39,045 bases of DNA, taken from IMG/VR virus record IMGVR_UViG_3300048631_000675, positions 1-39,045 of that record. The stretch is one strand, 5' to 3'. The notes below the pieces were generated by a model. The model made no database searches, was not told the origin of the DNA, and was given only the letters and a program-made list of their open reading frames with translations. Of this stretch, positions 606-936 are shown in pieces. This stretch comes from a virus (Duplodnaviria > Caudoviricetes). Within the stretch, counting starts at the first letter, position 1. Each line of letters begins with the position of its first letter. The translations under genes were made by a program, and so were the position numbers.

Positions 606-800
606 TCAGGCGCCGATGGCGAGCGGCGAGGCCGCGACGTTCGGCTCGGGATCGCGCAGCACGTAGCCCCGGCCCCAGACCGTCTCGATGTAATGCTCGC
701 CGCCCGTGGCCTGCGCCAGCTTCTTGCGCAGCTTGCAGATGAACACGTCGATGATCTTCAGCTCCGGCTCGTCCATGCCGCCATAGAGGTGGTTGAGGAA
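606..800 (-). pseudogene. ctrA: 3' remnant of the response regulator CtrA (recognition helix and wing), cut off from its 5' part by the prophage
   Basis: [28 protein letters not shown]...[15 protein letters not shown] is the conserved CtrA C-terminus. Similarity stops upstream of 800, where KEM is expected and HFYT is found. ctrA next to ligA is the usual Rhodobacteraceae synteny. Confidence 0.93.
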
Positions 801-803
801 CGT
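781..803. other. Approximate prophage attachment junction inside ctrA
   Basis: Abrupt change from CtrA-coding sequence (minus strand TTCCTCAACCACCTCTATGG) to AT-richer non-ctrA sequence at ~801-803. The core length cannot be set because the other att is outside the window. Confidence 0.7.
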
Positions 804-936
804 ATAAAAATGCTTTCCCCGCCAAACGCTTGCGATGAAACGCCCCCCCGTGAACGGGGCATGACCGAATCGCGAAAGTTGAAACGGGCCGGATGGCTCG
901 CCCGCACCTTCCCTGACCTGTGACCGGAGAACCACC

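Follow-up and report, generated by a model that had tools for sequence, protein, structure and literature searches.

A clade of phage integrases that splits ctrA in Rhodobacterales without repairing it: probable knockout of a master regulator by lysogeny

In the window, by which we mean the whole 39,045-nucleotide stretch of DNA analysed here, a complete-looking temperate phage begins partway through the host gene ctrA. In other Rhodobacterales ctrA is interrupted at this 7-base site by related phages that do not repair it, and lysogens are therefore likely to lack a working CtrA until the prophage is excised. In Rhodobacterales CtrA is a central regulator of motility, production of gene transfer agents (GTA) and DNA uptake, with links to quorum sensing. 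The explanation that we favour, and hold to be probable though by no means secure, is a dedicated knockout of CtrA by lysogeny from which the phage benefits, i.e. negative lysogenic conversion of a master regulator rather than a switch timed by the host. The features of the window are the following.

1..540, minus strand: 5' part of ligA (NAD-dependent DNA ligase), running off the window; from its translation, 98% DNA identity to genome G414 and the same order at locus L008
606..800, minus strand: orphaned 3' ctrA with the rest of helix 2, recognition helix, wing and tail; from alignment to OmpR-family structures and winged-helix (wHTH) anatomy
793..799, minus strand: 7-bp strand-exchange overlap TCCTCAA; the empty-site identity spans 793-801, and three complete cases have direct repeats of 7 bp or more
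802..886, minus strand: phage arm of the ctrA 3' junction, with arm-type repeats CGTTTCA(A/T) at 835-842 and 879-886; from alignment with G001
2059..21687, minus strand: late region of a P22-like podovirus (PHROGs)
2059-4083, minus strand: tail-spike-like ORF, a putative label from size and position
4971-5480, minus strand: amidase (PHROGs)
14074-15426, minus strand: head closure (PHROGs)
15874-17115, minus strand: major head (PHROGs)
17976-19958, minus strand: portal (PHROGs)
within 2059..21687, minus strand: ejection proteins, adaptor, scaffold, TerL and TerS (PHROGs)
27189..33413, no single strand: replication genes and a divergent regulator pair (PHROGs, NCBIfam)
32738-33037, minus strand: cro-like gene, a putative role from the layout
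ending at 33413, plus strand: cI-like XRE gene, its role likewise putative from the layout
35127..37710, plus strand: recombination module of Erf, exonuclease, NinB and HNH (PHROGs)
37880..38056, plus strand: 58-aa ORF overlapping the start of int, a candidate excisionase by position, with no NCBIfam match
38053..39045, plus strand: intact tyrosine integrase of 330 aa, of the ctrA-targeting clade (PHROGs E 3.5e-45; clade tree)

The 3' piece of host ctrA at 606-800 (residues 174-237; codons 609-800, ending in IGA*) recovers the CtrA model NF045991 as its best NCBIfam match (model positions 174-224, E 2e-30), and the 5' half at locus L007 matches positions 1-175 of the same model (E 2e-91); both score below its whole-protein cut-off because each is a fragment. 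Genome G414, from the genus of Limimaricola hongkongensis, encodes an intact CtrA of 237 aa, and the window piece shares 98.4% identity with residues 174-237 of this protein; nine of ten genomes of that genus matched the ctrA pattern. At the DNA level, window positions 1-801 are 98.25% identical to G414, the identity stopping exactly at 801 with phage DNA from 802 onwards, and none of 802-20000 was found in a search of G414. The empty site in G414 reads GAGATGT-TCCTCAA-CCACC and the window TATACGT-TCCTCAA-CCACC. Given this flank identity, the host of the window is likely to be a Limimaricola. What we take to be the KxDG ligase motif is read in the ligA translation (1-540), and the CtrA C-terminus beside ligA with similarity ending at about 801, as given in a preliminary description of this DNA, is borne out.

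An assembly chimera at this junction is unlikely, since an independent genome, that of L. hongkongensis DSM 17492 (G001), has a homologous junction and a closely alignable phage arm; the spacing of the arm repeats (-43, -86/-87) is identical in G001 and similar in Paracoccus phage Pkon1. The phage-side contigs of X1 and X2 start at 772 and show 0 differences; they have fewer than 31 host-side letters, X1 and X2 may be the source samples, and the contigs were not counted as bridging. The right 3 kb of the phage is fully present in two hydrothermal-vent metagenome runs, which may be its source.

The anatomy of the OmpR-family winged helix is well established. In an alignment with this family the cut in ctrA falls in helix 2, leaving the recognition helix and wing in the orphan piece, while the stub of residues 1-175 retains the receiver domain and D51 and would be unable to bind DNA. 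Together with the empty-site comparison this supports the earlier proposal that integration inside ctrA removes the recognition helix, and with it the wing. The open frame at 606-962 (118 aa) was considered as a CtrA C-terminal protein started from phage DNA and rejected, because the homologous arm of G001 has a stop five codons upstream and no promoter-like site occurs in 500-2100.

Comparison of 60 ORFs with PHROGs reveals a complete-looking P22-like podovirus without obvious decay, with matches to TerS, TerL, portal, scaffold, major head, adaptor, head closure, ejection protein and amidase, and further to replication and recombination genes, an XRE regulator and the integrase. The integrase closing the window is intact, as first described, and possesses the lambda-type R-K-H-R-H-Y catalytic set: residues R193, K216, H276, R279, H303 and Y312 are invariant in all 26 aligned rows. 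Across the clade the attachment overlap takes the form T(C/T)CTNAA, 7 bp within ctrA codons F174-N176, accompanied by imperfect core dyads or inverted core sites and direct arm-type repeats, which are features of lambda-type att sites. Repeats of the CGTTTCAA type lie on both arms with conserved spacing, and overlap, dyads and arm repeats together fit a lambda-type system. The window is the whole record and ends at the integrase stop (39045), the picture of its far junction being drawn from the distances in relatives: its ctrA 5' junction is predicted about 60-110 bp past that stop, and its far end probably resembles theirs.

The phage also encodes a thymidylate-synthase-like protein and a DNA methyltransferase (27189-28121 and 31427-32143). 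A strong G+C hairpin at 2027-2052, terminator-like on both strands, sits between the junction-proximal rightward genes and the leftward tail-spike-like gene. With one mismatch allowed, the window phage contains no CtrA box (0.87 expected), and therefore no feedback loop is visible; with one to three one-mismatch matches in the other four elements, control of the phage through CtrA boxes was rejected. A phage-encoded substitute for CtrA was found in none of the window, G001, G002 and Pkon1 elements.

Among named genomes, the nearest integrases are those of L. hongkongensis DSM 17492 (72%) and Sulfitobacter sp. 1A12157 (G002; 55%), and beyond each of them lies the 5' part of ctrA, which breaks off after KEMFL. 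In G001, G002 and a third whole genome, G124, the ctrA halves are separated by elements of 46.0, 40.6 and 47.2 kb bounded by direct repeats of 9, 8 and 7 bp respectively, and the halves are in phase, yielding computed products of 237, 235 and 238 aa (237 aa in an intact relative). The earlier claim that excision restores ctrA is therefore supported as regards in-frame rebuilding in these relatives. A second intact ctrA, the possibility of which had been raised against it, is absent from all three genomes, with the next-best CtrA match at most 37%. The gene order mnmA-sciP-ctrA-ligA is recovered around the site: ligA follows the ctrA piece in the window and in L008, and mnmA and a sciP-like gene, presumably sciP, lie upstream in nine of 12 attL loci, the other three being too short.

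The site is occupied by a myovirus in G001, by podoviruses in the window and G002 and by siphoviruses in G124 and Pkon1, with gene sets that include endolysins. All six elements sized measure 38-50 kb, and all five examined for gene content have head and lysis genes. With such sizes, and with ctrA intact in eight of nine pattern-matching genomes of the genus of G001, these are not degraded, lineage-fixed elements of the skin kind known from Bacillus. The junctions at L238 and L239 are likewise intact. Beside the ctrA 3' junction (L140:3915-6392) the G124 prophage additionally encodes a kinase-like protein of 826 aa that weakly matches a receiver domain, possibly a phage-borne signalling gene.

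In a tree built by a quick method from 126 integrase rows, each with 42% identity or more and no shorter than 230 aa, duplicates having been merged, all ctrA-linked integrases fall in one 56-row clade (SH-aLRT 97), with the tRNA-Cys-linked rows outside it. The preliminary description had suggested a search for integrase homologues beside split ctrA genes; of 58 clade loci, 12 display a ctrA 5' junction (11 distinct), 18 were flagged as attP-like, one is inverted, 14 lack flanking DNA and 13 gave no site by script. In the attP-like count L005 is doubtful and was dropped, and L002 and L161 are additional cases seen by eye and missed by the filter; L002 is a free attP form whose integrase and 102 bp of arm are identical to those of the provirus L003/L098. 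The 5' halves at the junctions are 79-100% identical to L. hongkongensis CtrA. At none of the 11 distinct junctions does a phage-borne repair regain downstream CtrA sequence; all 11 tails resemble CtrA no further than FLNHLY and run into a stop within about 55 residues. Gene-restoring integration of the tRNA/dusA type, with a replacement piece in attP, is accordingly seen at none of these relatives' junctions, the window ending before its own. An attP usually carries such a piece, the exceptions often being cases of regulated gene integrity (PMC10111431), and its absence here is therefore an exception.

One could still suppose that ctrA is repaired or backed up in the window's own host, by a phage-borne 3' copy beyond int or by a second ctrA, given that the record comprises only the phage and its left flank up to the integrase stop, and that ctrA identity extends to 20-23 bp at some attP sites (L002; PD15). 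We regard this as very improbable, as none of the 11 distinct relatives effects a repair, including the one with the nearest integrase, G001, whose phage arm is homologous to that of the window, and the three whole genomes hold no spare copy. Within the window itself tblastn (E<=1) detects no other CtrA-like sequence, in keeping with the first reading that the phage brings no replacement.

The named integrase matches come from Limimaricola, Sulfitobacter, Paracoccus, Salipiger, Pseudooceanicola, Ponticoccus and Loktanella; two matches, labelled Pseudomonas sp. and Rhodospirillaceae bacterium, are exceptions. A survey by integrase search, scoring only five candidates per genome, and junction pattern found a split ctrA in one of 400 evenly drawn family genomes (species representatives, centres excluded). 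A clade integrase was found in none of 112 other genomes of the genus of G002 and, besides the centre genome, in none of 400 Alphaproteobacteria genomes; given only one split per 400 genomes in the family, the class-wide null has no power to show restriction to hosts with a non-essential ctrA. The integrase clade is a dedicated one, widespread but of low frequency.

Several loci depart from the common arrangement. At L023:3475-3716 (G403) a clade integrase and, after it, the ctrA 3' piece share one strand, i.e. an insertion of opposite orientation at the same site; its arm resembles the reversed int-side arm of L164, an in-frame ATG precedes FLNHLY, and the record lacks the other junction. Integrases just outside the ctrA clade (42-52% identical) lie beside tRNA-Cys at L184, L189, L107, L033 and L112, which suggests a change of target between tRNA-Cys and ctrA in one or the other direction. 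At L154, L156-L159, L163, L170, L175 and L179 other phage genes come after the clade integrase and no att site was seen within 460 bp; it may have been displaced or lost.

The site itself is already in print without its identity. Paracoccus phage vB_PkoS_Pkon1, which yields virions upon mitomycin C induction, was reported to disrupt a putative OmpR regulator gene (Decewicz et al. 2019, PMC6536676); its attB was published as GTTTCTCAA(G/C)CAT, and prophage vB_PpaP_PD15 uses the same kind of site (PMC6536676). This string and the further published attB string GTTCCTGAACCATCTTTACGGCG correspond to the ctrA codons MFLNHLYG, and the Pkon1 integrase, 54.6% identical to that of the window, is nested in the ctrA clade of the tree. 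Pkon1 and PD15 are thus like the window in site, and Pkon1 also in integrase clade, and the disruption of a gene was noted by the authors (PMC6536676). They differ in that Pkon1 is a siphovirus of Paracoccus, the window phage being a P22-like podovirus of a probable Limimaricola host. The word ctrA does not occur in the article text and two supplements, one of them partial, where the target is called an 'OmpR family transcriptional regulator' and, in the parts available, the disrupted gene is given no phenotype (PMC6536676). The supplementary file on Pami4 lists recG, ligA and a 171-bp 'OmpR' ORF as phage genes (PMC6536676); because its boundaries include these, the left end of Pami4 was probably set in the wrong place, and it is likely that the prophage really sits in ctrA, the annotation suggesting a third unrecognised case. 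Pami4 was not induced by mitomycin C (PMC3925955). In the literature searched (including passages of PMC8224337, PMC5730936, PMC10386132, PMC9437464 and PMC3925955) ctrA is not named as a phage attachment site, though Mageeney et al. 2020 may list it among candidates for regulated gene integrity. The breadth of the phenomenon, the missing repair and the connection to CtrA were not found in the literature searched.

The outputs under CtrA control give some indication of what a lysogen might lose. Both fla1 flagella and the turnover of c-di-GMP are driven by CtrA in P. inhibens and D. shibae, and mutants of the CtrA phosphorelay show repression of a resident prophage (PMC12363192). The genes comEC, comM and comF, gafA and those for Tad pili carry CtrA sites and are CtrA targets, and CtrA controls comEC/comM/comF for the uptake of GTA DNA (PMC6473078). 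Deletion of ctrA confers resistance to phage Jorvik (PMC10589892).

For the present host group the silencing of motility and GTA production expected in the preliminary description is partly contradicted. G001, G002 and G414 each possess a single FlhA of the fla2 type and no fla1-type copy; these are 66-90% identical to each other and to one of the G124 copies, and about 39% identical to the other. No CtrA boxes occur in the flagellar regions of G001 and G414 (in G414, the 40 kb around FlhA), and G414 yields no GTA_TIM match. G124 has both flagellar types, with three and eight CtrA near-boxes (0.4 and 0.6 expected), and a GTA_TIM match to a full-length GTA gene is retained in G001, G002 and G124. 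L. hongkongensis DSM 17492 is non-motile in its description (PMC4572655), yet swims on soft agar with a flagellum of type 2 (PMC5030684). Silencing of motility in this strain, expected from the 'non-motile' description, was rejected in view of this swimming, which is more simply explained by a fla2 flagellum without CtrA boxes than by excision; in the host group as a whole, motility silencing by the split of ctrA is doubtful. At L266:1-1900 G414 carries a degenerate, fla1-like flagellar remnant (a hook-like gene, a truncated flagellin and a flgN-like gene) with an exact CtrA box, and G001 has a similar 44-aa flagellin match.

A smaller CtrA regulon is nonetheless likely to be at stake, because five exact CtrA boxes are common to G001 (five of six) and G414 (five of seven). 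They are found at radC/dnaJ, a PAS protein, a GT2-MshEN glycosyltransferase, an SNase nuclease and a lipoprotein, of which radC, dnaJ and lipoprotein are labels that we presume from the translations. Genome-wide box counts were not above the reversed-pattern control (6 vs 8 in G001, 7 vs 2 in G414), and only the conserved positions were used.

These observations bear on the possibility that ctrA is a tolerated hot spot. The gene would then be used only because the DNA encoding KEMFLNH is conserved across Rhodobacterales and offers an imperfect dyad fit for use, and the knockout would be real but near-neutral, with lysogens persisting mainly where the CtrA regulon has already shrunk. Paracoccus species are mostly non-motile, and the largest integrase cluster looked up, to which the Pkon1 integrase belongs, comprises 53 members, with names from several to many Paracoccus species. 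The prevalence of one in 400 and the fla1-like remnant of G414 point the same way, and three of the four genomes examined (G001, G002, G414, G124) have no fla1-type FlhA, as against fla1 making up 218 of 284 flagellar clusters in 306 genomes (PMC12363192). However, this sample is small and two of its four genomes share a genus, G124 combines both flagellar types with near-boxes in excess of expectation, three genomes keep a full-length GTA gene, and G001 and G414 share their five exact boxes. We therefore consider near-neutrality a possible account, though not the probable one.

The candidate phage-operated switch of the preliminary description amounts to active lysogeny, in which the prophage would be excised without lysis on a specific cue, restoring ctrA as in the comK switch of Listeria. 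Non-lytic excision in a subpopulation would then flip cells between two states, one phage-shielded and GTA-silent, the other with CtrA on. The split without repair, the lack of a backup copy in all three whole genomes and the precise, computed in-frame rebuilding agree with this. The motility record of DSM 17492 and the stable white variants that this strain yields on ageing (PMC4572655, PMC5030684) can be cited in its favour, and such switching might also underlie the colony types of L. hongkongensis; the failure of mitomycin C to induce Pami4, placed at the ctrA site by annotation, may be added (PMC3925955). Against it, the elements are full-sized, complete-looking phages with head and lysis genes, of unrelated types, sporadic rather than lineage-fixed and known also in free attP forms; Pkon1 yields virions on mitomycin C (PMC6536676), the window phage lacks a CtrA box, and the swimming of DSM 17492 has the simpler explanation above. 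The switch is thus unsupported by these results, and we rate it unlikely. An intact lytic programme is compatible with non-lytic excision by analogy with Listeria phage phi10403S, which does both (PMC7397523).

The comparison with known systems clarifies where these phages stand. The comK phage of Listeria uses a serine integrase, unlike the tyrosine integrases of the ctrA clade. In Bacillus, skin (sigK) and SPbeta (spsM) interrupt a regulator or developmental gene whose frame is restored by excision; the sporulating host controls this excision, which occurs in a terminal cell type, and skin is cryptic and lineage-fixed. The ctrA elements are unlike these in being full-size, varied and sporadic. 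L. monocytogenes phi10403S in comK is likewise a lysis-competent prophage that splits a master-regulator gene, restored on excision, but excision without virions in macrophages was demonstrated there (PMC7397523), and for the ctrA phages non-lytic excision would be hypothetical. The Sa3int phages of Staphylococcus aureus in hlb provide a close parallel, as diverse intact phages with one integrase type at one protein-gene site causing negative lysogenic conversion; their target, though, is a single toxin gene and not a global regulator, and excision as a switch has been studied there (PMC6597384). AbaR islands in comM (PMC11441513, PMC4774983) follow a logic that may be shared, the element disabling a host route by which it could be cured; they hit an uptake gene, whereas the ctrA phages hit a regulator, and any protective effect is by analogy a proposed one.

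We return to the knockout of CtrA by lysogeny as the favoured explanation, and build it on what was directly observed: the attachment site, the integrase clade, the lack of repair in relatives, the reading-frame arithmetic and the full phage gene sets. The integrases of this clade use the 7-bp overlap inside ctrA as their attachment site, and at the junctions of relatives their phages bring no replacement fragment. The lysogen would likely make only the CtrA(1-175) stub, and ctrA would likely be rebuilt only on excision, most likely alongside lytic induction. The knockout is presumably tolerated because CtrA is non-essential in Rhodobacterales. The prophage would likely benefit from the shutdown of CtrA-dependent outputs that threaten it: GTA DNA taken up by the cell could cure it, GTA production is lethal, other phages make use of surface structures, and there are rival phages dependent on CtrA. 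In the present host group this benefit looks smaller, with no GTA_TIM match in G414, only fla2-type flagella in G001, G002 and G414, and DSM 17492 swimming.

With an integrase clade dedicated to cutting ctrA, some wild and culture-collection strains are likely to be natural ctrA nulls. The split cases include the type strain of L. hongkongensis, and that of the P. kondratievae lysogen of Pkon1 follows from the published attB. This affects how the phenotypes and annotations of such strains are read, for instance where a short 'OmpR' ORF lies beside ligA. At least one phage, Jorvik, depends on CtrA (PMC10589892), and the ctrA phages offer a way to test, with existing strains and an isolated phage, the idea that mobile elements escape curing by suppressing gene exchange through GTA, a proposal already made for natural transformation.
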